This document shows, piece after piece, positions 12,021 to 63,577 of a stretch of DNA of 64,000 nt. The translations under genes were made by a program, and so were the position numbers. The DNA comes from Bacteroidales bacterium UBA1184 (GTDB lineage: Bacteria; Bacteroidota; Bacteroidia; Bacteroidales; ML635J-15), in assembly GCA_002310235.1 (NCBI GenBank), contig DBYO01000035.1, forward strand, positions 418-64,417, read 5' to 3'. The notes under the pieces were generated by a model that was given only the letters and a program-made list of their open reading frames with translations, did no database searches and was not told the origin of the DNA. The number at the start of each line of letters is the position of its first letter. Position 1 is the first letter of the stretch.

Positions 12021-13766
12021 TCATTTCCTCTTCTTCTTGGACTGAACGCAAACAGGACGCACAGAGAACCCGCTGTTACGTAAGGTGCCAGTGATGTTGC
12101 AAACGCCCGAACTGAAGTCAAGGAACTTAGCTAAGCTAGTATACTCTGTGTCAAGCGAACTCGTCCAGTAGTAACCGTTGAAATCGGCTCCGTCGTCATC
12201 GTTATCGTAAAGGTAACCTGCTGCGGGCAGGAAAATACTATTGCCATTGGTTCTGCTGGTGAACAACAATCCTTTTAAACCGTTCTGGGTTGTCCAGGTC
12301 GTATCGCAATTGTCAACAAGTTCCTGCATTTCGTCCAGTGTAGGCATTCTCCAGTTTCCGCCCCAATTAACAGAAGCAGCATCATCACTAGACTCCAATG
12401 TTGTAAGCGTATCTGTATAACCATTTAGTCCGAAACCTTCATCATTGCAATACTTTGTCAGCGTTAGTTCACCGCCATCACAATATTGATATGTTTCCCA
12501 ATCATATGTATCCTTGGTTTCAGTTTCGCCCCAAGCGTAATAATTGCCATACTCGGTAGGAATATTTGCGCCCACATTGGTGCACGCCCACAGTAAGCCG
12601 CTTGGCAAACCTAAATCGACATAGCCATAGCCATCCTTATAGCCTGTTGGATCGCTATAGGCATGTGGCTTGGTAAACTGTCCCACTTCGCTCTCAAGCA
12701 AACCATCGGGAGTCTTTACGTACGCCTTATAATAATAGGTTGTCTGCTCAAGGTTGTACAAATCATACGAGAACAATTGACTAGTCTCGCGACACATTAA
12801 AGTATCGGTAAGCTGAGAATCGCTACCGCCATACACAAAACCACATTCGTACAATTCCGAATTTCCTGCATAATAGGCGCTCAGGGTTACTGTGTCGCCA
12901 TTCCATGAAGGCTCGTTCAGATAAACATAATCCCCTATAAGCGTACCATTACCTGGAATCGTCATACTCACCACAGGACTATGTACAACAGTTGGCACAG
13001 AATCGCCATCATCCATACGCAAAGTTGCAAGTGCCACAACCGAATATTCGGCAGAATCGAGTTCCTGTGCATACAATCGGGCCACAAATATATTGGGGTT
13101 ATTATCTGATGGTTCTGCGTCATATAACAAATAATCGTCATTCCCATCCAGCTGCTGAATATCGGACTCTGTAAGGATACGCTTTGCCCAGAAGCGTTTT
13201 TCTTCCTCGCTCAACTGCCCGCGTTTCAGAGCAAATGCATATTGTTCCAAGCTTTCGGTTCCTTCTATAACTTCGCCGTAAAGCAGAATGCTTCCACCGT
13301 TAATTTCGAGATCAGAATTCACGATAATACGCGGGTAGCCAGACGAGAGCACTATTTCGACATCAAGCGCAGAATTTTCTCCCGACAAATACAGCAGACG
13401 GGTCGGATCTGACATTCCTGACAGCGTATCGCCCTGTATCACAGCCGACACGCCAACCCAGAAGCCTACTTCACGACGTACATATATGATCTCCGAATGC
13501 GCCAGGTCGTTAGAGAACAGTCCGTCACCATCGGCATCGAGAAAACGGCAGTTATAGCCTATGGTATCCTCAGTGCTATAGTAAATTGTAACACGAGCAT
13601 CAAACGATTCGATTGCCGCCTTATTGGCGAACTGACAGTCGCGCTTCAAACCGAGGTTAAGCACTCCTACATTACCATAATCCAACGGATCCTTGCGACA
13701 ACCAACAATCGCAAACACGACAATGGATAATATCGACATTAAAAGTAAAGCTCTCTTCATAAACAC
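12021..13766 (-). CDS. Lipoprotein with C-terminal DUF1566-like module (third member of the local family)
   Basis: The 581-aa ORF has the lipobox VFAIVGC. Its C-terminus reads YVDLGLPSGLLWACTNVGA..YYAWGETE..WRMPTLDEMQEL..NGNSIFLPAAG..YYWTSSL..GFSVRPV. Confidence 0.85.
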   Translation of the reverse strand: MFMKRALLLMSILSIVVFAIVGCRKDPLDYGNVGVLNLGLKRDCQFANKAAIESFDARVTIYYSTEDTIGYNCRFLDADGDGLFSNDLAHSEIIYVRREVGFWVGVSAVIQGDTLSGMSDPTRLLYLSGENSALDVEIVLSSGYPRIIVNSDLEINGGSILLYGEVIEGTESLEQYAFALKRGQLSEEEKRFWAKRILTESDIQQLDGNDDYLLYDAEPSDNNPNIFVARLYAQELDSAEYSVVALATLRMDDGDSVPTVVHSPVVSMTIPGNGTLIGDYVYLNEPSWNGDTVTLSAYYAGNSELYECGFVYGGSDSQLTDTLMCRETSQLFSYDLYNLEQTTYYYKAYVKTPDGLLESEVGQFTKPHAYSDPTGYKDGYGYVDLGLPSGLLWACTNVGANIPTEYGNYYAWGETETKDTYDWETYQYCDGGELTLTKYCNDEGFGLNGYTDTLTTLESSDDAASVNWGGNWRMPTLDEMQELVDNCDTTWTTQNGLKGLLFTSRTNGNSIFLPAAGYLYDNDDDGADFNGYYWTSSLDTEYTSLAKFLDFSSGVCNITGTLRNSGFSVRPVCVQSKKKRK

Positions 13767-14029
13767 CTAACATAAATGAGCCTCAAATATACAATATTTT
13801 TTATGATTTGCCGCTATATATCCACACAGAAAATTATTATTTCACGATAATGCGGAACAGGGAACAGAAAAAAATATGTGCCTGTAATCTCTTAACCAAT
13901 TTAGGTATTACAAATAATGACAGGAGGTTTGTGGATTAAAAATTTAAATACTTAATAATTAACTCATTATCCATTAAACCCTAAAAAATAATAAATATAA
14001 AATCATAATCTCAAATTGTAAATATTACT

Positions 14030-14037
14030 TATCTTTG
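14030..14037 (+). promoter_or_regulatory. -7 box (TAtcTTTG) upstream of the serA-like gene
   Basis: ttatctttg matches TAnnTTTG and ends 50 nt upstream of the ATG at 14088. Confidence 0.45.
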
Positions 14038-14087
14038 CCGAACTTTAAAAGCAGAACAATAATAAAATTTTAAAACACAAGATTGAA

Positions 14088-15011
14088 ATGAAAAAGGTTT
14101 TAGTAGCAACCGACAAACCGTTTGCTAAAGAAGCAGTTGACGGCATCCAGGCAAAGGCAAAAGCCGCTGGATACGAAGTTATTTTACTTGAAAAGTACGG
14201 AACCAAGGACAAACTTTTGGCTGCTGTAGCTAATGTTGACGCAATGATTATCAGAAGCGATGTTGCAGACAAGGAAGTTATCGAAGCTGGTAAGAACCTG
14301 AAGATTATCGTTAGGGCTGGTGCAGGTTTCGACAACATCGACCTCAATGCAGCAACCGCTTGCAATGTAGTTGCAATGAACACTCCTGGTCAGAACTCGA
14401 ATGCAGTTGCAGAACTTGCTATCGGTCTTATGATTATGGCAGCAAGAAACAACTACAATGGCAAGTCGGGTTCGGAAATCCACGGAAAGAAACTCGGTAT
14501 CTACGGTTACGGAAACGTTGGCCGCCTCCTCGGAAAGTACGCTATGGGATTCGGCATGGAAGTAGTTGCATACGACCCATTCCTCACAAAGGAACAAATT
14601 GAATCGACTGGCGCAAAGCAGTGCACCAACCTCGACGACCTGTTTGGCACCTGCCACTACATCTCGCTCCACTGCCCGGCTAACGACGAAACAAAGAAGT
14701 CAATCAACATGAGCAAAATCGGTAAGATGCCTAAGGGTGCAACCCTCATCAACACTGCCCGCAAGGAAGTCATCGACGAAGACGACCTCAAGAAGGTTCT
14801 TGCAGAAAGACCAGACTTCAAGTACATGGCAGACGTTGCTCCAGAATGCGCAGCTGAACTCAGAGAAAACTACGCTGACCGCGTATTCTTCACACCGAAG
14901 AAACTTGGCGCTCAGACCGAAGAAGCAAACGTTAACGCAGGTATCGCAGCAATCAACCAGATCGTTGACTACTTCGAGAACGGAAACGAAAGATTCAGAC
15001 TTAACAAGTAA
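14088..15011 (+). CDS. serA: D-isomer-specific 2-hydroxyacid dehydrogenase, short D-3-phosphoglycerate dehydrogenase type
   Basis: The 307-aa ORF has the NAD fold motif GIYGYGNVGR, plus RAGAGFDNID, INTARKEVIDE and the catalytic-region pattern of the family. Assigning PGDH rather than another 2-hydroxyacid DH is inference. Confidence 0.75.
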   Translation: MKKVLVATDKPFAKEAVDGIQAKAKAAGYEVILLEKYGTKDKLLAAVANVDAMIIRSDVADKEVIEAGKNLKIIVRAGAGFDNIDLNAATACNVVAMNTPGQNSNAVAELAIGLMIMAARNNYNGKSGSEIHGKKLGIYGYGNVGRLLGKYAMGFGMEVVAYDPFLTKEQIESTGAKQCTNLDDLFGTCHYISLHCPANDETKKSINMSKIGKMPKGATLINTARKEVIDEDDLKKVLAERPDFKYMADVAPECAAELRENYADRVFFTPKKLGAQTEEANVNAGIAAINQIVDYFENGNERFRLNK

Positions 15012-55748: not shown

Positions 55749-55830
55749 GCGGATGTGGCGTAATTGGTAGCCGCGCTAGACTTAGGATCTAGTGCCGAAA
55801 GGCGTGGGGGTTCGAGTCCCTTCATCCGTA
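55749..55830 (+). tRNA. tRNA-Leu (anticodon TAG), type II
   Basis: GCGGATGTGGCGTAATTGGTAGCCGCGCTAGACTTAGGATCTAGTGCCGAAAGGCGTGGGGGTTCGAGTCCCTTCATCCGTA. The anticodon loop is CTTAGGA. Confidence 0.9.
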
Positions 55831-55836
55831 CAACCG

Positions 55837-57278: not shown

Positions 57279-57308
57279 AAAAAAAGGTCTCCATTCGAGA
57301 CCTTTTTT
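57279..57308. terminator. Bidirectional rho-independent terminator between tig and hsdM
   Basis: The sequence is aaaaaaaggtctc-cattc-gagacctttttt. Confidence 0.85.
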
Positions 57309-57330: not shown

Positions 57331-58842
57331 TTATTTGCCCAAATCCTCAATTATATTCTTAAAGCATTTCAAACTGCTTTCGATATTTTCAACAATGTCG
57401 GCGGCAATTTCCTCAGGCTCGGGAAGATTGTCGAGATCGGTAAGGCTCTTGTCCTTTATCCAGAATATGTCGAGGTTGGTTTTGTCGCGGGCAACAATCT
57501 CATCGTAAGTGAACTTGCGCCAACGTCCTTCGGGATTTTCCTCGCTCCAAGTTTCGGTACGCAGATTGCGATTTTCGGGATTATAGCACTTGATAAAATC
57601 GGACAAATCCTCGAATGTGAGCGGTGACTTCTTGAGCGTGTGGTGAATGTTGGTGCGGTAGTCGTAAATCCAAATGTTCCTGGTCTGCACTTCCTTGCTT
57701 GCAGGACGATTGTCGAAGAAAAGCACATTTGCCTTTACTCCGTTTGCATAGAAAATACCGGTAGGCAGACGAAGAATAGTGTGCAGTTCGGTGGTTTTCA
57801 TCAGTTGCTTGCGAATCTCCTCGCCTGCTCCTCCTTCGAAAAGTACATTGTCGGGCAACACGACAGCCGCCTGACCGTTGATTTTCAACAAAGTTTTGAT
57901 ATGCTGAAGGAAATTCAACTGCTTGTTGGAAGTGGTTTCCCAGAAATCCTGACGGTTGTAACTCAAATCCTCCTTCTCCACTTCGCCGTCCTCGTTGGTA
58001 ATGGTAATGCTGCTCTTTTTTCCGAAAGGCGGATTTGTGAGCACATAGTCGTAGCGGTTGCCTGTGTCGGACACAAGTGCATCGTTGGGCGAAATGAAAT
58101 CCTCGCTGTCGAGTTCGCCAATGTTGTGCAGATAAAGATTCATCAGGCACAGACGGCGCGTGTTGGCCACAATCTCGTTGCCGAAGAAGGTCTTTTTCTT
58201 CAGAAACAGTTTCTGGTCTTTGTTGAGCGGCTGACCTGCAATATAATCGTAGGCGGCAAGGAAGAAACCACCCGTTCCGCAGGCTGGGTCAATTATGGTC
58301 TTTTCTGGTTTCGGACGCACGCACTCCACCATTGCACGAATCAACGCACGGGGCGTAAAATACTGACCAGCACCGCTTTTGGTGTCTTCGGCATTCTTTT
58401 CGAGCAAGCCCTCGTATATCTTGCCTTTCACGTCAGAACCCATCAGCGACCAGTTTTCTCGGTTAATCATCTCGATTACGCGAAGCAGTTTGGCAGGATC
58501 CTGAATCTTGTTCTGGCTCTTAGTGTAGATTTGCCCCAACATTCCTTTCTCCGTGCCAAGGCTGCGAAGCATCTGCACATAGTAGGCCTCCAATTCGGCA
58601 CCGCGCTTGCTTGTGAGAGTTTCCCAGTCGCACATTTCACCGCCGGGGATTTCCTTTCCTTCGGCATCCTTTAGGCGCGGAAACTTCAACCCCTTGTTGT
58701 AAGGCGGTTTGTTCATCTCGTCGGCCATCTTCAAAAAGAGCAGATAGGTAATTTGCTCCAAATAGTCGCCGTAACTTACGCCATCGTCGCGAAGGACATT
58801 GGCCATATTCCAGATTTTCGATATTATTGTTGATTCGGTCAT
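57331..58842 (-). CDS. hsdM: Type I restriction-modification system, DNA methyltransferase subunit HsdM
   Basis: It has the HsdM N-domain (LRDDGVSYGDYLEQITYLLFLKMADE), the SAM motif IIDPACGTGGF and the catalytic motif NPPFG. I prefer the ATG at 58842 (MTESTII...) over the track's TTG at 58863. Confidence 0.93.
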   Translation of the reverse strand: MTESTIISKIWNMANVLRDDGVSYGDYLEQITYLLFLKMADEMNKPPYNKGLKFPRLKDAEGKEIPGGEMCDWETLTSKRGAELEAYYVQMLRSLGTEKGMLGQIYTKSQNKIQDPAKLLRVIEMINRENWSLMGSDVKGKIYEGLLEKNAEDTKSGAGQYFTPRALIRAMVECVRPKPEKTIIDPACGTGGFFLAAYDYIAGQPLNKDQKLFLKKKTFFGNEIVANTRRLCLMNLYLHNIGELDSEDFISPNDALVSDTGNRYDYVLTNPPFGKKSSITITNEDGEVEKEDLSYNRQDFWETTSNKQLNFLQHIKTLLKINGQAAVVLPDNVLFEGGAGEEIRKQLMKTTELHTILRLPTGIFYANGVKANVLFFDNRPASKEVQTRNIWIYDYRTNIHHTLKKSPLTFEDLSDFIKCYNPENRNLRTETWSEENPEGRWRKFTYDEIVARDKTNLDIFWIKDKSLTDLDNLPEPEEIAADIVENIESSLKCFKNIIEDLGK

Positions 58843-58863: not shown

Positions 58864-59568
58864 CTATAATCCATAATAGTATTTTATGGCGATACCTATG
58901 AATATCGCTATGGAAAAACTTAGTAATGTACCTATCAATACATATTCTGACTTGGCTTTATCGCCTTCGGCAAAACGCAAAATTGATTTCGCAGCTATGA
59001 TAAATCCAACAGCTTCATATTGTCCTAATAATATAAATGTAAACGCGAGTAACCTCTCTACTATTCCTATCAATTTTCCTGCATTAGGCAAATCATCCCC
59101 ACATTCTTCTTCCGTCCCTTTTGACACCTTTATATTTACCGCCTTAAAAATCTCCTTAATTATTATGTTAGACGGCTTTATGCAAACAAGGACACCCAAC
59201 AGTAATGCCAAATGCATTTCCTCCACACAACACAACCAATTAGGCAAATTACAATTCCACAGATAACAAACTGCCACAATGACCATCAAATGTATCAACT
59301 GGTCAATAAAGAAAATGCCCTTACACTTGGACGCATAACATTTCATTGCATCGACAAGCAAATGAGAAACCGCTATGATTAATGCAACCCACCAAAAACC
59401 GAATGAAAATGAGAACAGCCAAGCGCACAAAAAGGTTATAAGAACATGTATATAAAGTTTCGGCGACCTAAAACCTCTTTTTCCTTTGTCTGCGCACGAT
59501 TTATCTGTCTGTAAATAGAAATCACTAATTGTGTGGGCAATTATTTGTAATAATAAAAACCGTATCAT
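58864..59568 (-). CDS. DUF3307-like polytopic membrane protein
   Basis: The 234-aa ORF has at least 5 hydrophobic segments and polar motifs AHTISDFYLQ, VSHLLVDAMK and FIDQLIHL. It starts 2 nt after the SatD-like stop and ends 21 nt before the hsdM ATG. The family name is from memory. Confidence 0.6.
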   Translation of the reverse strand: MIRFLLLQIIAHTISDFYLQTDKSCADKGKRGFRSPKLYIHVLITFLCAWLFSFSFGFWWVALIIAVSHLLVDAMKCYASKCKGIFFIDQLIHLMVIVAVCYLWNCNLPNWLCCVEEMHLALLLGVLVCIKPSNIIIKEIFKAVNIKVSKGTEEECGDDLPNAGKLIGIVERLLAFTFILLGQYEAVGFIIAAKSILRFAEGDKAKSEYVLIGTLLSFSIAIFIGIAIKYYYGL

Positions 59569-59570
59569 AA

Positions 59571-60263
59571 CTAAAAGTTTATTTGTTCGTAATACTTCAG
59601 CAACTGCTCAACAGCATTCCAACCAAACAATGTCGAATGCTGATTTACAGCAGATTGATTAATACCCAATTTTTCGGATATTTCGTTCTCGTTTTTTCCT
59701 AACAGACGATAATATATGACTTCACATTGACGCTCCGTTGCTCGCTTAAACAATACATCCAACAAACCCAAATAAGCATTTATCTGTTGTGTCAATTTAC
59801 AATTCGAAGACTCGAAAAACAATGTATTTTTTATCACTACTTTTGATTTGTTCGAAGTTCGCTGGCGTTCTATTGCCCTTCCCGAAGCATATATGGCCTC
59901 GCCATCCAACATATTTGTCTGCTTATCGGCAATACGCATTTCACCAACGGCAATGGCTATTCTAACACCATATGTCTTAAACATATTTAAACGCCTCTTG
60001 TCTACATTTTGATCTGCACATTCTGTGTCAACCTTAAATTTTTTTATCATCGTTTTTAAAAGCAAGGCTATACGCAATGAGTTTTGTGGATTTCCCATAT
60101 AAATTTCCACGCTATCACCTTTGCTTAATCGGCCCCATGTATCTTCGTATTCTTTTTCTATTTGCTCAACAAAGACCCCTATCTCGTTCTGCAATTGACT
60201 TAAAGCACAAGGTGTCAGTTCTGTAGAAGATACTATGTCCGCTGAAATTGTAGCTCTATTCAT
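59571..60263 (-). CDS. SatD-like protein: N-terminal class III nucleotidyl-cyclase-like domain + C-terminal sigma-70 region 4/LuxR-like HTH
   Basis: The 230-aa ORF has the ordered motifs ISADIVSSTEL, GDSVEIYMGNPQNSLRIALLL, VRIAIAVGEM and GEAIYASGRAIE. Its C-terminus reads ERQCEVIYYRLLGKNENEISEKLGINQSAVNQH. The family and fold calls are by eye. Confidence 0.6.
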   Translation of the reverse strand: MNRATISADIVSSTELTPCALSQLQNEIGVFVEQIEKEYEDTWGRLSKGDSVEIYMGNPQNSLRIALLLKTMIKKFKVDTECADQNVDKRRLNMFKTYGVRIAIAVGEMRIADKQTNMLDGEAIYASGRAIERQRTSNKSKVVIKNTLFFESSNCKLTQQINAYLGLLDVLFKRATERQCEVIYYRLLGKNENEISEKLGINQSAVNQHSTLFGWNAVEQLLKYYEQINF

Positions 60264-60279
60264 AAATTTTATTTTTTTG

Positions 60280-60287
60280 CAAAGATA
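60280..60287 (-). promoter_or_regulatory. -7 box (TAtcTTTG) for the satD-like/DUF3307/hsdM operon
   Basis: The reverse complement of caaagata is tatctttg, which ends 16 nt upstream of the ATG at 60263. Confidence 0.5.
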
Positions 60288-60294
60288 CTAAATT

Positions 60295-60374
60295 TTATAA
60301 GCCAAAAAACTTATAAACTGTATTTATAAGCCAAATAACTTATAAACCATATTTATAAGCCAAATAACTTATAA
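60295..60374. promoter_or_regulatory. Three phased palindromes TTATAAG-N8-CTTATAA (29-bp spacing): candidate operator array
   Basis: Left arms are at 60295, 60324 and 60353, and right arms at 60310, 60339 and 60368. The spacer is ccaaaaaa in copy 1 and ccaaataa in copies 2 and 3. The array sits immediately upstream of the -7 box. Confidence 0.7.
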
Positions 60375-60395
60375 ATCGTTTCAAAACAAAACTTA

Positions 60396-60530
60396 TTATT
60401 TTGTTTGTAACAACCAGTCTATCACATTGATTTTCTGTAAACCATCAACTACGCTTCCATCGAAATCCAATGAAAGCAGATACTTTGGATTAGCATCACG
60501 AATACACTTTAATGACGAAATTTCCCATAT
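60396..60530 (-). pseudogene. Start-less 44-codon open frame with protein-like composition (possible gene remnant)
   Basis: The minus frame reads IWEISSLKCIRDANPKYLLSLDFDGSVVDGLQKINVIDWLLQTK*, bounded upstream by TGA, with no ATG or GTG start. Confidence 0.3.
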
Positions 60531-60600
60531 TCATTCGCAGAGCTCCAAATATGTATTTCTTTTTATCATACAATAAAAATTGTGATTGCAAATATACACA

Positions 60601-60642
60601 ATAATGACGAAAACTACAAAATTCAACAAATTTCGTCATTAT
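60601..60642 (-). terminator. 12-bp perfect hairpin downstream of hsdS
   Basis: The arms are ataatgacgaaa and tttcgtcattat with an 18-nt loop. There is no clean U-tract. A third aatgacgaaa copy lies at 60511-60520. Confidence 0.45.
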
Positions 60643-60664: not shown

Positions 60665-61864
60665 TCAGCCACAATTTGCGGTCGTTGAACCTGTTAAGAC
60701 AACCAATTCCCCGCTAAATGCCTTTTTGAGTATGCTTTGTCTCAGTGCCTCGGTCTTTTGCAACGATTCGGTAATGCGTGCCTCGGCTGCCTCGGCCTGC
60801 GACAGGCGCGATTCTATCTCCTCAACTATGCGCTGCTGCTCGTAAAGAGAAGGAAAAGGTATTTCACAATTTCTTATAATTCCTTGGTTTAAATTACTCA
60901 TAGTTGTTCCATTACTTGAATTCTCAAAATATGAAACAATTTTCTGACTGCTCAATAAATGACACAAATAAGTCGCATTCAGCAATTTACCACCTCTAAT
61001 AAACAAACTACCTGTTCCGCACAGCATTCCATCCTCTTTTCTTGAAACCACTGCACACCTTCCCATCTCTCCTCTCCGACCTAATATAACATCATCTATT
61101 TGTAAATAATAATTAGACAACTCTTTGTATTTTTCCAATGATACAGTAAACGAATTATAAGGAAATATCTTTTTATTATTAATGTGCATCGGATTAATTA
61201 ATGGAATACCACCTTCAATATAGTCGGACTTATGTAATTGCGTACCAAATGGTCCTATTTGAATTTTCTCTGCCACTTCTCCCAACTTCACCGTTTCCCA
61301 TTTCCCATCATCATTGTTCAGCCAATGGTTTAGCACTGCCTGCCTGTATATTTTTAGTTGCTGCTGTGCGGTGCGCAAGTGCTCCACGGCTTTGTCGAGT
61401 TCGGCAAATAGGGATTCTATGCGGGAAACTATGAGACGCTGGGTGGGGGTGTCAACATCGGGAATTTCAAAATTCCACAACAAATTGGGTTCAATATGCG
61501 GTATTCCTACTCCTCTTGGATTGCTATTCAACACTTTGTATTTCGATTGAAGAAAATAAAACAAAAAATCGTTTGTGTATTTTTCACTGCTTATTTTCGC
61601 CAAAGTCGAACCTATTGCACCTTCAACACCTCTACCAACAAAACCACAACGTGCACCGTCCCAAACAATTAAAACATCGTCTGGCGTACAAAATGTGCAA
61701 TTCTCCCCATCGGTATAATTGTCTATAATACCTTTCTCAAAGGCTTTAATATCAACATACGGAATTGCAAAACCATTCGTCTTTTCTTTAGAAACGTTTT
61801 TGGGTTTCTTGCCTTTGATACTGTGGGCAATTTCTATGAGCTTATATTTATTTAACAATCTCAT
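60665..61864 (-). CDS. hsdS: Type I restriction-modification system, specificity subunit HsdS (two target-recognition domains)
   Basis: The 399-aa ORF has two AT-rich variable halves separated and followed by GC-richer conserved helices (QRLIVSRIESLFAELDKAVEHLRTAQQQLKIYRQAVL; EQQRIVEEIESRLSQAEAAE..LRQSILKKAFSGEL). Confidence 0.9.
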   Translation of the reverse strand: MRLLNKYKLIEIAHSIKGKKPKNVSKEKTNGFAIPYVDIKAFEKGIIDNYTDGENCTFCTPDDVLIVWDGARCGFVGRGVEGAIGSTLAKISSEKYTNDFLFYFLQSKYKVLNSNPRGVGIPHIEPNLLWNFEIPDVDTPTQRLIVSRIESLFAELDKAVEHLRTAQQQLKIYRQAVLNHWLNNDDGKWETVKLGEVAEKIQIGPFGTQLHKSDYIEGGIPLINPMHINNKKIFPYNSFTVSLEKYKELSNYYLQIDDVILGRRGEMGRCAVVSRKEDGMLCGTGSLFIRGGKLLNATYLCHLLSSQKIVSYFENSSNGTTMSNLNQGIIRNCEIPFPSLYEQQRIVEEIESRLSQAEAAEARITESLQKTEALRQSILKKAFSGELVVLTGSTTANCG

Positions 61865-61870
61865 TGTATA

Positions 61871-63577
61871 TCAAAATAAAGATGGATATCCAAGTTGTAT
61901 ATCATATTTAACGAGTATTTTTTTTACCTTTTCAAATTCATTATCTTGAAGTAAATGGTATTTTTCATTTAAGTTAATTTTTTTAGCCATAAAATCTATA
62001 TTATAATCTTCCTCTATTCCTAATACCATTTGACTATTCTGAGGTTGCTCTCTCAGTATAAATTCATAAATATTTTTTATATGAGGAATGTCTTGCGCTT
62101 GTTGATTAGGAGAATCAATAATTATTGGGCAAAACATACTTGATGAATTGTTATTAGCTATATGCAGTATAGAAAAATAATATGCCATGATTGCTCTAAG
62201 AGACGAACTTCCTGTATTTTTAGGTTCTAAGTATATGTTTTTTATAGATGAAACATCATATTCTACATCTAGCTGTTGTAAATATATAGACATATATCTT
62301 TTATAGTCTTCTTTTATTTTCTCTCTTTTTTCTCTTTGCAATTTCTTTTCGTCTTTAATCTTTTGCTCCAAATCTGTTATTTCAAAATTTATTGCTTCCA
62401 ACCTTCTTTTTCGCTCACACATATCTTCTTCAAAGAATCGTATCGTCTCTTTAGCCCCTTCATTAACAATTATATCTGAAAGAGTTATATTTTCCTTTTG
62501 CTGATGCATTAACTCACTAATTTTATCATATTTTTCTTTATAAGAATTAATATTTTTCCTTTCTTCTTCAATCTTATCGTTTATTGCTTTTAAATCTTTT
62601 TCTAAATCTTGAAGAATGACAGAACATCGATTTTCTTCTTTAATAAAAGCAAAACGATGGTCCATACTATTAGTATAGTTCATACCACAAGTTGGACAAA
62701 CTAACTTATCTGGTTTTGATAATGAATATTTATAATCATCATTGAGTTCTTTTAATGTATGTTTTGTAATATTTATTTGGGAAAACAAATTATACTTTTG
62801 ATCATAATATTCTATTAATTGCGCCTTACTTTTTTTCTGCTTAGCAATCAAATCACTACATTCTTGTTCTAATCTTTTTATTTCACATTGGAAATCATTT
62901 AAAGTCATTGCAAAATATTTTATACTTGCCGTATCTTTTATTTTATTATCCAGGACTGATATTATATTATATTCTTTTTCCTCATTATCATAATTTATCT
63001 TCTTTGTTTCTCTATCACATTGTAATTCATATAGTTTTCTACTATTATATCCGATATGATATTCTATTGTGTTCTTTTTGTAATCTTTAATCTGTTGCAA
63101 ACCTTTAAATGAATTCCATGCTGTTGTCCAACCTGAATCTTGGTCAATATAATAAGGAATAAAAACAAATGCAGGGGGAGGAACAATAAAGTTACCATTT
63201 TTATCGGGAAGTTTTATTACAAATCCTAATAAGTTCGCAATATACTGACTATATTCTCCAGAAATCTTTGAATATGATTTTAAAAGTTGATCTTTAGAAT
63301 CGTAAATCGATATAGTATTATCAACTTTTCTATAAATAGAATACTCCTCATTATTAATTGAGAATCGCAATAAAACATCAACCCTCGCATCTTTCCATTT
63401 TGGATTAACCTTCAATGAATCAGCACCGAACGCATAATATATACTTTTAATTAAAGAACTTTTCCCAGTATCATTTGTCCCTATTATTATTGTTCTTTGC
63501 TGATCGAACACTACTTCTCTCGCCCTTTTCTCCTTGAAAGAACAGAGCAGTATCTTTATTAATTTGAAGCTTTTCAT
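61871..63577 (-). CDS. ABC/SMC-like ATPase with coiled-coil insertion and CxxC hook (Rad50/LmuB-like; defence-associated candidate)
   Basis: The 568-aa ORF has Walker A GTNDTGKS (aa 33-40), a Q-loop-like YIDQDSGW, a K/E-rich helical region at aa ~185-440 with CPTCG at aa 294-298 (C294/C297; nt 62687-62698), a signature-like TGSSSLR, and Walker B/D-loop-like FCPIIIDSPNQQ (aa ~482-493). Its stop lies 6 nt before the hsdS start. Confidence 0.7.
   Translation of the reverse strand: MKSFKLIKILLCSFKEKRAREVVFDQQRTIIIGTNDTGKSSLIKSIYYAFGADSLKVNPKWKDARVDVLLRFSINNEEYSIYRKVDNTISIYDSKDQLLKSYSKISGEYSQYIANLLGFVIKLPDKNGNFIVPPPAFVFIPYYIDQDSGWTTAWNSFKGLQQIKDYKKNTIEYHIGYNSRKLYELQCDRETKKINYDNEEKEYNIISVLDNKIKDTASIKYFAMTLNDFQCEIKRLEQECSDLIAKQKKSKAQLIEYYDQKYNLFSQINITKHTLKELNDDYKYSLSKPDKLVCPTCGMNYTNSMDHRFAFIKEENRCSVILQDLEKDLKAINDKIEEERKNINSYKEKYDKISELMHQQKENITLSDIIVNEGAKETIRFFEEDMCERKRRLEAINFEITDLEQKIKDEKKLQREKREKIKEDYKRYMSIYLQQLDVEYDVSSIKNIYLEPKNTGSSSLRAIMAYYFSILHIANNNSSSMFCPIIIDSPNQQAQDIPHIKNIYEFILREQPQNSQMVLGIEEDYNIDFMAKKINLNEKYHLLQDNEFEKVKKILVKYDIQLGYPSLF

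Follow-up and report, generated by a model that had tools for sequence, protein, structure and literature searches.

A putative autoregulated SatD-DUF3307 cassette separating hsdS from hsdM in a type I restriction-modification locus

Two genes, coding for a SatD-like protein and for a DUF3307 membrane protein, are lodged between hsdS and hsdM in a type I restriction-modification (R-M) locus of the window, i. e. the whole stretch of 64,000 nucleotides that was analysed. We consider it on balance probable that they form an autonomous, autoregulated cassette occupying a cargo slot of the locus, similar in function to toxin-antitoxin or abortive infection modules, with hsdM placed behind its promoter. 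An earlier note on this DNA had proposed two non-exclusive readings of the pair: a controller of the C-protein kind that sets methylase expression, or a Pycsar/CBASS-style couple of cyclase-like sensor and membrane effector riding inside the R-M locus. Each was retained in part. Of the first, an autoregulator (very probably) with hsdM in its unit stood, but not a dedicated, C-protein-like one; of the second, we kept the embedded cargo, seen again in slots of type I loci and within BREX, but not the Pycsar/CBASS mechanism.

Results

A type I R-M locus with two cargo slots

Features of the locus are collected in Table 1. The window contains hsdS and hsdM, while hsdR lies just beyond its end. The identical contig L001 reads hsdR-LmuA-LmuB-hsdS, and the order of the R-M genes is hsdR-hsdS-hsdM. 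The space between hsdR and hsdS constitutes the other cargo slot, occupied here by Lamassu genes (PADLOC, E=7e-167 for LmuB and E=5e-12 for LmuA).

Coordinates confirmed that hsdS is upstream of the pair and that the ATG of hsdM, at 58842, follows the DUF3307 stop by 21 nt, as the earlier note had it. hsdM is the last gene of its transcription unit. The SatD-like/DUF3307/hsdM unit ends at a terminator that separates hsdM from the convergent tig gene, and no other terminator was found between this one and the operators described below. Read from these signals, hsdM is part of the transcription unit of the SatD-like gene.

The 400-nt spacer separating hsdS from the SatD-like gene was considered as a possible small ORF or second regulatory element, and both candidates were rejected. 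Most of this spacer is what an internal deletion has left of an ATPase gene, itself former cargo of the slot, together with the leader and -7 box of that gene. The leader and first 9 codons agree at 100% with the intact 420-aa gene of L113, and the last 42 codons at 97.6%.

Table 1. Positions, in the window, of the genes and predicted signals discussed in the text.
Feature	Position	Strand	Basis and remarks
Bidirectional intrinsic terminator	57280..57308	.	12-bp stem, with T and A runs on its flanks
hsdM, type I methyltransferase, 503 aa	57331..58842	-	N6_Mtase E=4.6e-69; PADLOC MTase_I E=1e-192
DUF3307 polytopic membrane protein, 234 aa	58864..59568	-	PF11750
SatD-family protein, 230 aa	59571..60263	-	Pfam/profile searches, AF2 model; presumed autorepressor
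Putative Bacteroidetes-type -7 box TAtcTTTG	60280..60287	-	Read from sequence; 16 nt 5' of ATG
Three tandem 29-bp repeats, presumed operators	60294..60380	-	Period 29, 2.8 copies, 94% match
AAA_14/DUF4143 ATPase remnant, internally deleted	60399..60629	-	L113 comparison; Pfam AAA_14 + DUF4143
hsdS, specificity subunit, 399 aa	60665..61864	-	Methylase_S E=4.5e-28; upstream border of cargo slot
Lamassu LmuB and C-terminal part of LmuA	61871-63577; 63625 to window end	-	PADLOC

A divergent member of the SatD family

The 230-aa open reading frame and the ordered motifs reported earlier are present: ISADIVSSTEL at residues 6-16, GDSVEIYMGNPQNSLRIALLL at 49-69, VRIAIAVGEM at 100-109 and GEAIYASGRAIE at 121-132. 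The protein is laid out as a cyclase-homology N-domain (residues ~1-135) and a helix-turn-helix (HTH) of the LuxR/sigma-70 region 4 type (residues ~176-210). This C-terminal HTH, which had been recognised by eye, is matched at residues 176-210 by the Pfam profiles GerE (E=7e-4) and Sigma70_r4_2 (E=7e-3), both below their cut-offs. Sigma70_r4_2 also matches 45 of 124 relatives of the protein, and some relatives have TPR repeats added.

Direct assignment by Pfam, NCBIfam and PADLOC returned weak HTH matches only, so membership of the SatD family was settled by profile searches. The window protein itself has no match to the Pfam SatD profile (PF16264, gathering score 29 bits), even at E<=10. The same profile nevertheless matches 35 of its 124 profile-detected relatives, with a best E of 6.4e-16. 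When the window family was aligned with the PF16264-matching subfamily by hhalign, a probability of 100% was obtained over the full length (E=1.8e-57, 221 columns), and many matches of the SatD-type subfamily carry a precomputed PF16264. The likeness to SatD that had been proposed is therefore borne out by the relatives, though not by the protein taken alone. By these comparisons the window protein is a divergent SatD-family member, sharing full-length homology with Pfam SatD but lying below any reportable PF16264 match.

Among known systems, the closest are the Pfam families SatD and DUF3307 and, in Streptococcus mutans, satD-satE of the sat locus. A literature search returned no functional or defence-related study of the SatD family, of satD/satE or of DUF3307, and no account of SatD operators, of a cyclase fold or of embedding in R-M or BREX loci. 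The SatD side alone amounts to ~1,500 clusters at 50% identity.

The N-terminal domain resembles class III cyclases

The AF2 model of the SatD-like protein (pLDDT 89.8) was compared to PDB structures with Foldseek. The best 50 matches were all catalytic domains of class III adenylyl/guanylyl cyclases, with a best E of 4.4e-5, in line with the resemblance first seen in the motifs. Superposition on the 160-aa Ma1120 domain gave TM values of 0.5-0.55 and an rmsd of ~3.1-3.5 Å over ~138 columns. With a full-length profile, a search of PDB sequences found HTH proteins only, and this profile was set aside; cyclases were reached with a profile restricted to the N-domain, 3mr7 at a marginal E of 0.005 and Ma1120 at E ~0.3. 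The Pfam Guanylate_cyc profile has no match to the SatD-like protein, which means that the cyclase proposal holds at the level of the fold but not of this profile. On the model, then, the N-domain is a class III cyclase-homology fold.

The alignment with 3mr7 places residues D9, G49-D50 and R101-x-A-I-G-x-G on the cyclase motifs metal-Asp, GD and RIGIxxG. Both metal-binding Asp, as the earlier note had read, are thus kept. Among the 124 representatives, D50 is invariant and D9 at least 90% conserved, and the conserved Arg of the N-domain is nearly invariant across the family. Tyr125 presumably stands in for the transition-state Asn, judging from a motif alignment to the class III consensus; the replacement of Asn by Tyr had been pointed out before, and Tyr125 is invariant in the close family, with Phe or another residue in the wider one. 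R129, the Arg of the N..R pair, is present in the window protein and is not conserved family-wide. No substrate-specifying Lys was found at Asp-4 of the SatD-like protein, and the position 7 residues before Tyr125 lies outside the conserved columns of the close family.

The protein consequently has the fold, both metal-Asp and the RxGIxxG motif in common with class III cyclases such as Ma1120, Rv1900c and bPAC/OaPAC. It differs from them in having no Guanylate_cyc match, Tyr in place of Asn, no substrate-specifying Lys/Asp, and a shorter N-domain of ~135 aa. Rv0386 of M. tuberculosis, a cyclase-...-LuxR-HTH protein, has the same domain order.

The DUF3307 partner

The 234-aa membrane protein that had been attributed to DUF3307 does match PF11750, at E=5e-25 and 88.4 bits over residues 5-120, well above the gathering score of 23 bits. 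All three motifs listed for it were found, H12..S15-D16-F-Y-L-Q20 (H..SDFYLQ), S68-H-L-L-V-D73 (SHLLVD) and D89-Q-L-I-H93 (DQLIH). Its intramembrane His/Asp/Gln residues are invariant, and a C-terminal extension is conserved too. Its model, of moderate pLDDT (67.9), consists of ~10 helices and a short acidic loop. No significant match was obtained when this model was compared to PDB folds (best E=2), nor when the sequence was compared to solved structures, and in BFVD the only matches were short phage DUF3307 proteins (E=0.4-1). The conserved His/Asp/Gln residues suggest an enzyme, a transporter or a channel, and not a crude membrane toxin.

The DUF3307 gene starts 2 nt after the stop of the SatD-like gene, as reported earlier, and such a gap makes translational coupling likely. 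It lies directly 3' of the SatD-like gene in ~76 of 80 species, and the pair is also found on Vibrionaceae plasmids, which corroborates the pairing given in the earlier note. One MAG has a second, paralogous SatD-DUF3307 pair (L023 and L033). Phage records contained no SatD-like gene, and their DUF3307 domains were N-terminal ones only, in Ralstonia jumbo phages. As judged from these gene orders, the SatD-like and DUF3307 genes are a conserved unit.

Predicted operators and promoter of the pair

The operator-like palindromes that had been noticed upstream of the SatD-like gene are indeed present as tandem repeats (Table 1). Each repeat is a palindrome of the form TTTATAAG-N7/8-CTTATAAA (TTATAAG-N8-CTTATAA). 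In the 64-kb window this motif occurs at this promoter only; chance would give 0.4 matches. Downstream of the third operator, 6 nt separate it from the -7 box, and a TTTG is found in the spacer of that operator, at the expected place of the -33 element. Transcription is predicted to start near 60273.

A scan for sigma-70 promoters (11 sites, for 10 expected) is uninformative for a Bacteroidota genome, and the Bacteroidetes -7 motif, whose consensus is reportedly TAnnTTTG (Bayley et al. 2000), was used instead. It is present at most 80 nt from the start in 55 of 79 homologous loci, compared to 163 of 1099 control ORFs. At least two perfect palindromes with the same arm were counted in 42 of the 79 homologous upstream regions, against 3 of 802 control regions. 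Equivalent operators stand before nearly all homologues. Arrays were seen in all subfamilies, L181, L188, L189 and L190 (27-31% identical) among them, and the whole layout (operators, promoter, SatD, coupled DUF3307) is kept down to 27-31% protein identity.

The recognition helix was found to track the operator arm. QSAVNQHST goes with TATAAG, QSVVNQHS with TAT(C/A/T)GG..CCGATA, RQHAVNQLSN with TATCAG, SRPGVNQNLRN with AGTAAG, and DQSVVNRHST with ACATAAA. Very probably the SatD-like protein binds DNA and regulates its own operon, and the repeats at 60294..60380 are presumed to be the binding sites of its dimer. Judged only from the position of the operators, it would repress rather than activate.

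Exchange of cargo in R-M and BREX loci

Among 80 loci of hsdM relatives, hsdS and hsdM abut in ~17, and ~45 have other same-strand cargo. Cargo found elsewhere between hsdS and hsdM includes Septu PtuA/B, GmrSD, RhuM-Fic, Fic, AlbA_2, NOV_C and AAA_14/DUF4143 genes. In hsd loci with 92-95% identical HsdM, the slot is empty or holds other cargo. L114 has a remnant of the window-type operator/promoter, and then a very divergent SatD-DUF3307 cassette. The slot between hsdS and hsdM is held by the pair in two separate clades, with the order SatD-DUF3307-hsdM kept, and the slot between hsdR and hsdS is held by it in L188 and L189. Further pairs sit between pglX and pglZ of BREX (L181), immediately 5' of a type III-like methylase gene that is accompanied by RhuM-Fic (L084), and 2 nt upstream of a TOTE primase-helicase (L072). 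Contigs of P0145, P0176 and P0206 are shorter than 2 kb and yielded nothing on gene context.

When the window was compared with L027, hsdM had a dS of 0.17 and hsdR one of 0.33, against 1.27 and 0.87 for the two genes of the pair, as in a mosaic. A reading without mosaic, obtained by block-wise blastn, was discarded as an artefact of a single HSP-wide identity; per-gene dN/dS showed real differences in dS. In silico, the two genes are seen to move or recombine together, as one cassette.

Genes embedded as cargo in R-M and BREX operons have repeatedly proved to be new immunity or abortive infection genes. Known examples of embedded cargo are PrrC, which resides in EcoprrI, and, for BREX, type IV restriction or PARIS genes. 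With embedded cargo such as Septu, GmrSD, Fic/Doc and Lamassu, the SatD-DUF3307 pair shares position, strand, the possession of its own promoter, and exchange as a cassette between near-identical hsd loci. Unlike the others, it has no sequence kinship to them, brings its own transcription factor and is mostly found outside defence loci. The pair is absent from PADLOC, neither protein matching any model.

The pair outside R-M loci

In ~62 of 80 species the pair has no hsd gene within 10 kb. Housekeeping genes (for example V-ATPase, rhamnosidases, Na+/H+ exchanger, TilS) surround it in ~25 of 31 clusters defined at 75% identity. In a clade of ~20 species it has a fixed position inside the V-ATPase operon, which fits a stable physiological gene pair better than it does patchy defence cargo, and in L042 it adjoins a Na+/H+ exchanger. 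Intact pairs were also found beside remnants of hsdS/hsdM (L005-L010, L022, L024, L030, L032). Values of dN/dS for the pair are 0.06-0.13, indicating purifying selection, including where the hsd genes have decayed. This persistence means that the pair is not a dedicated R-M controller.

Discussion

We favour an autonomous cassette acting as follows. SatD would dimerise via its cyclase-like domain, cover the -33 region and repress its own operon. The cyclase-like domain probably binds a Mg-nucleotide, and would modulate DNA binding either as a ligand sensor or as a weak enzyme. DUF3307 would be an effector acting on the membrane, harmful when derepressed, and the pair would behave as a module of the toxin-antitoxin or abortive infection type. 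hsdM would be transcribed from the SatD-controlled promoter, possibly with some read-through from hsdS.

Type II toxin-antitoxin systems likewise consist of two coupled genes, the first being an autoregulator (here a predicted one) with palindromic operators. Like them, the pair is found at scattered sites, including defence islands and plasmids, and persists after its neighbours have decayed. The pair differs from these systems in that its putative toxin, at 234 aa, is polytopic in the membrane and has conserved residues of an enzyme-like kind, and its putative antitoxin carries a cyclase-like domain predicted to bind nucleotides. By analogy, we infer a toxin-antitoxin-like function for SatD-DUF3307.

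To be accessory and yet essential is a signature also shown by antitoxins, repressors and R-M methylases. In a Tn-seq meta-analysis of Streptococcus pyogenes, satD (SPy1171) was the sole 'essential accessory' gene (PMC11323703). This is a further, if only suggestive, likeness to type II toxin-antitoxin genes and, by the same analogy, a hint that DUF3307 might be toxic; a cassette of this type may then explain the singular position of satD in that species.

Among the alternatives, the one that survives best is a physiological module, which is possible though we judge it rather unlikely. DUF3307 would be a cation/proton channel, a transporter or a membrane enzyme, SatD a ligand-responsive one-component regulator, and the two would serve ion, pH or envelope homeostasis, their presence in R-M and BREX loci reflecting the hitch-hiking of a small cassette with its own promoter into recombination hot spots, unrelated to any part in defence. 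The housekeeping contexts of most pairs agree with this, above all the V-ATPase operon position kept across ~20 species and the Na+/H+ exchanger beside the L042 pair, as do the invariant intramembrane residues of DUF3307 and the absence of a PADLOC match for either protein. So do the 'secretion and acid tolerance' annotation and the link to acid tolerance of the S. mutans sat locus, from which the family takes its name (as cited in PMC11323703). Chance hitch-hiking fits poorly, however, with the occurrence of 27-50%-identical members in two type I slots and in BREX. The accessory yet essential status of satD in S. pyogenes (PMC11323703) and the second paralogous pair in the same MAG also argue against a purely physiological role.

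That SatD-DUF3307 is an undescribed abortive infection or 'guard' module seems to us unlikely. In such a module, a repressor of cyclase fold would sense nucleotides and keep the membrane effector in check; a change of the nucleotide signal, brought about by phage infection or by phage inhibition of methylation-based immunity (type I R-M, BREX), would set the effector free. If true, this would explain why divergent versions have repeatedly been captured in type I R-M and BREX operons, and one-component regulators that sense with a degenerate class III cyclase domain would be a new class.

A distinctly improbable mechanism is the Pycsar/CBASS-like one, whereby SatD would make a cyclic or linear nucleotide upon infection and the DUF3307 effector would respond with abortive infection. 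The class III cyclase fold, the near invariance of both metal-Asp and of an Arg, the membrane protein partner and the pairs in defence contexts are compatible with it. Against it, PADLOC gave no Pycsar or CBASS match, the transition-state Asn is replaced, conservation of the Arg in the N..R pair does not extend to the whole family, and no Lys/Asp that would specify the substrate is present. The partner, with its ~10 helices and short acidic loop, has PF11750 as sole detected domain. Finally, an HTH with cognate operators makes DNA binding the predicted output of the SatD-like protein, i. e. that of a transcription factor, which also counts against nucleotide signalling to an effector.

C proteins are small proteins of the Xre type. 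In silico, the SatD-like protein is similar to them as an HTH autoregulator with tandem palindromic operators, placed in one unit with an R-M gene; unlike them, it has another HTH class and size, has M and not R in its unit, occurs beyond R-M as well and comes with a membrane partner. A dedicated controller of this kind, timing or setting hsdM for safe establishment of R-M with DUF3307 as an accessory, is highly improbable: hsdM does follow at 21 nt behind an operator-covered promoter, and the SatD-DUF3307-hsdM arrangement is kept in two clades, but the operator-regulator-DUF3307 unit mostly occurs without R-M and outlives the decay of hsdR, hsdS and hsdM, near-identical hsd loci have an empty slot or other cargo, the L188/L189 and BREX pairs are not upstream of the methylase, and the HTH is of the LuxR/sigma-70 region 4 type.

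For the autonomous cassette, several handles are now at hand: a predicted operator code, a regulator with a cyclase-like domain, a membrane partner without solved structural relative, and a recurrent association with methylation-based defence. At the locus of the window, it would leave a type I methylase gene behind a foreign promoter, predicted to be autorepressed. With hsdM transcribed from such a SatD-controlled promoter, methylase expression would be high before the repressor accumulates, and damped afterwards.

Organisation of the locus

The genes discussed here all lie on the minus strand of the window, and their positions are given in the Table. The locus continues just past the window end with hsdR, seen on the identical metagenomic contig L001, and its full order is hsdR-LmuA-LmuB-hsdS-[pair]-hsdM, where the pair is a SatD-like gene followed by a DUF3307 membrane-protein gene. 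The earlier note had placed these two genes 2 nt apart, with hsdM following after 21 nt; both spacings, and all motifs quoted for the two proteins, were correct. A scan from the start of the 230-aa gene to the end of hsdM gave no terminator-like sites other than weak intragenic matches. Because no terminator separates them, the three genes look like a single transcription unit, in agreement with the proposed co-transcription. The terminator on the tig side, adjoining core genes, is the border of the hsd island.

Features of the hsd locus in the window
Feature	Position	Strand	Remarks
LmuA	63625 to window end	minus	PADLOC; Cap4-nuclease domain; cut by window end
LmuB	61871-63577	minus	PADLOC E=7e-167
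hsdS	60665-61864	minus	upstream of 400-nt spacer
AAA_14/DUF4143 remnant	60399-60629	minus	leader, first 9 codons and last 42 codons; own -7 box TAtaTTTG
Three tandem 29-nt units	60294-60380		each a palindrome TTTATAAG-N-CTTATAAA
Bacteroidetes -7 box TAtcTTTG	60280-60287		6 nt downstream of the end of the last repeat unit
SatD-like ORF (230 aa)	59571-60263	minus	
DUF3307 ORF (234 aa)	58864-59568	minus	
hsdM	ATG 58842, stop 57331	minus	
Strong bidirectional terminator	57280-57308		between convergent tig and hsdM; terminator scan
tRNA-Leu	55749-55831		upstream of tig

A divergent SatD-family protein and a DUF3307 membrane protein

The 230-aa protein had no match to Pfam SatD even at E<=10, and none in NCBIfam or PADLOC searches, but the family name could be reached transitively. 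Pfam SatD is matched by 35 of 124 representatives of the wider family (best E=6.4e-16), and hhalign joined the window's family to this SatD-matching subfamily over the full length (probability 100%, E=1.8e-57). These profile comparisons place the protein in the SatD family, as a divergent member beyond the reach of the Pfam model. The family comprises about 1,549 clusters at 50% identity (E<=1e-3), a few members having TPR repeats appended.

The AlphaFold model of the protein is confident (pLDDT 89.8), and its 50 best PDB fold matches were all class III adenylyl/guanylyl cyclase catalytic domains (best E=4.4e-5). With a profile of the N-domain only, PDB matches were the cyclases 3mr7 (E=0.005) and Ma1120 (about 0.3); the alignments line up D9 with the first metal-binding Asp, G49-D50 with the GD motif and R101..G107 with RIGIxxG. 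Motif alignment puts Tyr125 at the transition-state Asn position. An alignment of 29 sequences left D9, K48-G49-D50, R101, G107, D120-G121, A123-I124-Y125, G128-R129 and the HTH invariant. Across the 124 representatives, conservation of at least 90% was found only for D9, G49, D50, R101, G107, G121, A123 and G128, with Y125 and R129 below that level. This pattern argues that the cyclase-like domain retains what metal-nucleotide binding requires, without the canonical catalytic set. The class III likeness first noticed holds for the fold and for both metal-binding Asp, and the Asn to Tyr exchange is seen as well. For the C-terminal sigma-70 region 4/LuxR-like HTH, Pfam gave sub-threshold matches only (GerE and Sigma70_r4, residues 176-210).

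The assignment of the 234-aa protein to DUF3307 was clear (Pfam E=5e-25). Its predicted membrane helices carry the invariant polar residues H12, S15, D16, Q20, H41, H69, D73, D89, Q90 and H93, and its C-terminal half the conserved LPNAG, E171-R172, GQxEAxGF and AAKSxLRF. The structure model, of moderate confidence, contains about 10 helices, and neither sequence nor fold search found a relative of solved structure. Resemblance to the N-terminal part was limited to short phage DUF3307 proteins.

Predicted operators upstream of the SatD-like gene

The operator-like palindromes reported upstream proved to be three tandem units at a predicted promoter, with a TTTG in the spacer of the last unit at the position expected for a -33 element. 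The repeat motif has no further occurrence in the 64 kb. The same design was found upstream of homologues: 42 of 79, from different species, have at least two perfect same-arm palindromes (3 of 802 control upstream regions), and in 55 of 79 a TAnnTTTG lies no more than 80 nt from the start (15% of controls). The arms vary by lineage (TATAAG/CTTATA, TATCGG/CCGATA, TATCAG/CTGATA, TATAGC/GCTATA, AGTAAG/CTTACT, ACATAAA/TTTATGT), and where they differ, the recognition helix of the HTH carries corresponding substitutions. Homologues only 27-31% identical (loci L181, L188, L189 and L190) still have three TATAAG-N-CTTATA sites each. Since the palindromes are kept across homologues and their arms co-vary with the recognition helix, there is strong in silico evidence that the SatD-like protein, a predicted dimeric autoregulator, uses these repeats as its operators. 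Their position suggests repression rather than activation.

The pair is the conserved unit

The pairing of SatD with DUF3307 given in the earlier note was borne out: the DUF3307 gene directly follows the SatD-like gene in about 76 of 80 species loci, often with an overlap of a few bases, and likewise on Vibrionaceae plasmids. In just 15 of these 80 species do hsd genes lie 10 kb or less from the pair: 13 species of the window's clade, with at least 80% identity, and a distinct clade about 50% identical (L018, L063). Four loci of the window's clade (L022, L024, L030 and L032) retain an hsdS remnant and a 50-94-aa N-terminal remnant of hsdM, and no hsdR; metagenomic contigs L005-L010 are in the same decayed state. 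The pair is intact in all of them, and pairwise dN/dS was 0.06-0.13 for both genes in every comparison, decayed loci included. Because it stays intact and in the range of purifying selection where hsd has decayed, the pair has a function of its own, and selection maintains it irrespective of R-M. The conserved unit is the pair alone, not the pair plus hsdM.

Directly beside the pair, 28 stand-alone clusters have mostly housekeeping genes (V-ATPase, rhamnosidases, Na+/H+ exchanger, TilS, acyl-CoA dehydrogenase, ABC exporter), and in a clade of about 20 species the pair keeps a constant place within the V-ATPase operon. In one locus (L056, 10001-10815) a SatD-like gene stands at the V-ATPase position with no DUF3307 gene detectable behind it, perhaps a regulator orphaned when its membrane partner was lost. 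One MAG, JAILLP01, holds two paralogous pairs, one in a type I locus and one stand-alone (L023 and L033, SatD-like proteins 82% and 59% identical to the window's).

Cargo slots in type I and other defence loci

Starting from hsdM, 80 metagenomic relatives (L101-L180, 75-97% identity) were surveyed. Gene order in this type I family is hsdR-hsdS-hsdM, an unusual one; its basic form has hsdS abutting hsdM, and both junctions serve as slots. The hsdS-hsdM gap is at most 9 nt in about 17 loci, and is filled by 0.4-3.3 kb of same-strand cargo in about 45: Septu PtuA+PtuB, GmrSD-type enzymes, RhuM-Fic/Doc, Fic, Schlafen-AlbA_2/HATPase_c_4, NOV_C/DUF3883 (PDC-S36-like), AAA_14/DUF4143, DUF4062, DUF6946, Bro-N and several proteins of unknown family. 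A recurrent 215-aa cargo protein (6 loci) had no Pfam or PADLOC match. SatD-DUF3307 occupies the slot in 7 surveyed loci, among them L114, where the pair is very divergent, and L105, with only a divergent DUF3307 at the contig end. In the window, the hsdR-hsdS slot holds the Lamassu pair LmuA and LmuB.

The 400-nt spacer of the window is the remnant of an internally deleted AAA_14/DUF4143 ATPase gene, which is intact in the slot of L113. In L114 (4190-4560), a window-type operator/promoter remnant ending ...TATCTTTGCAAAAAATG is followed by the very divergent cassette, which brings three 27-28-nt repeats of its own, an arrangement that records a cassette replacement. Between the window and L027, dS was 0.17 for hsdM and 0.33 for hsdR, against 1.27 and 0.87 for the pair. 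The ATPase remnant, the replacement in L114 and the higher dS of the pair thus mark the hsdS-hsdM junction as a site of cassette exchange.

Loci of distant SatD-like members, picked for a weak Pfam match or solely for the size of the carrying contig, were also looked up. In one (P0255; L181, 4493-6387, and also L182) the pair lies between pglX and pglZ, inside a BREX operon, preceded by a 135-aa ORF without family match. In two others (P0407, P0479; L188, L189) it fills the hsdR-hsdS slot of the window's own type I family, and the hsdS-hsdM slot of L188 is taken up by a gene for a PtuA-like ATPase together with one of 202 aa; P0492 is stand-alone. In the species set, the pair immediately precedes a type III-like DNA methylase and then RhuM-Fic in L084, the member examined of a cluster shared with L093, and in L072 it lies 2 nt ahead of a TOTE primase-helicase. 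R-M, BREX or conflict genes surround or adjoin the pair in 6 of 9 informative look-ups and in 5 of 31 clusters at 75% identity; for a random gene, a rough estimate puts proximity to a type I system (10 kb or less) below 1%. On the conjugative Vibrio lentus plasmid p1 (L186), a 112-aa fragment annotated as type I subunit M (13763-14098) lies about 4 kb from a distant pair, with Rpn and IS4 transposase genes between.

Interpretation

These in silico results show SatD-DUF3307 as a promoter-bearing two-gene cassette under predicted operator control, which is exchanged as cargo in a type I R-M family with variable slots and occurs in BREX too, with hsdM in the window as the end of the cassette's transcription unit. 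The SatD-like regulator would repress its own operon, its cyclase-like domain serving for dimerisation and nucleotide sensing, and DUF3307 would be a membrane effector, harmful once derepressed, giving toxin-antitoxin-like or abortive-infection-like behaviour. The main rival, in which the pair is a physiological module of the membrane or of ion homeostasis controlled by a ligand-responsive regulator, stays alive, favoured by the housekeeping contexts of most pairs and the enzyme-like conservation of DUF3307. The observation of the earlier note is confirmed, and its two readings in part. A predicted autoregulator has hsdM in its unit, as a C-protein-like controller would, but independence of the pair from R-M contradicts a dedicated one. 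The pair is indeed embedded in R-M and BREX loci, but a Pycsar/CBASS mechanism is contradicted by the missing catalytic residues, the lack of a PADLOC match and an evident output that is predicted DNA binding.

Embedded cargo is already known in R-M and BREX loci, so SatD-DUF3307 is no categorically new type of system; what is new is a widespread uncharacterised family, combining a predicted operator code with a regulator of cyclase fold, that methylation-based defence loci have repeatedly captured. Our literature searches gave no functional work on DUF3307 or SatD, and nothing tying either to defence. Antitoxins, prophage repressors and R-M methylases show an accessory yet essential pattern. 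In a Tn-seq meta-analysis of Streptococcus pyogenes, satD was the single accessory gene (71% of genomes) essential wherever present (PMC11323703), which would fit with SatD repressing a harmful partner.
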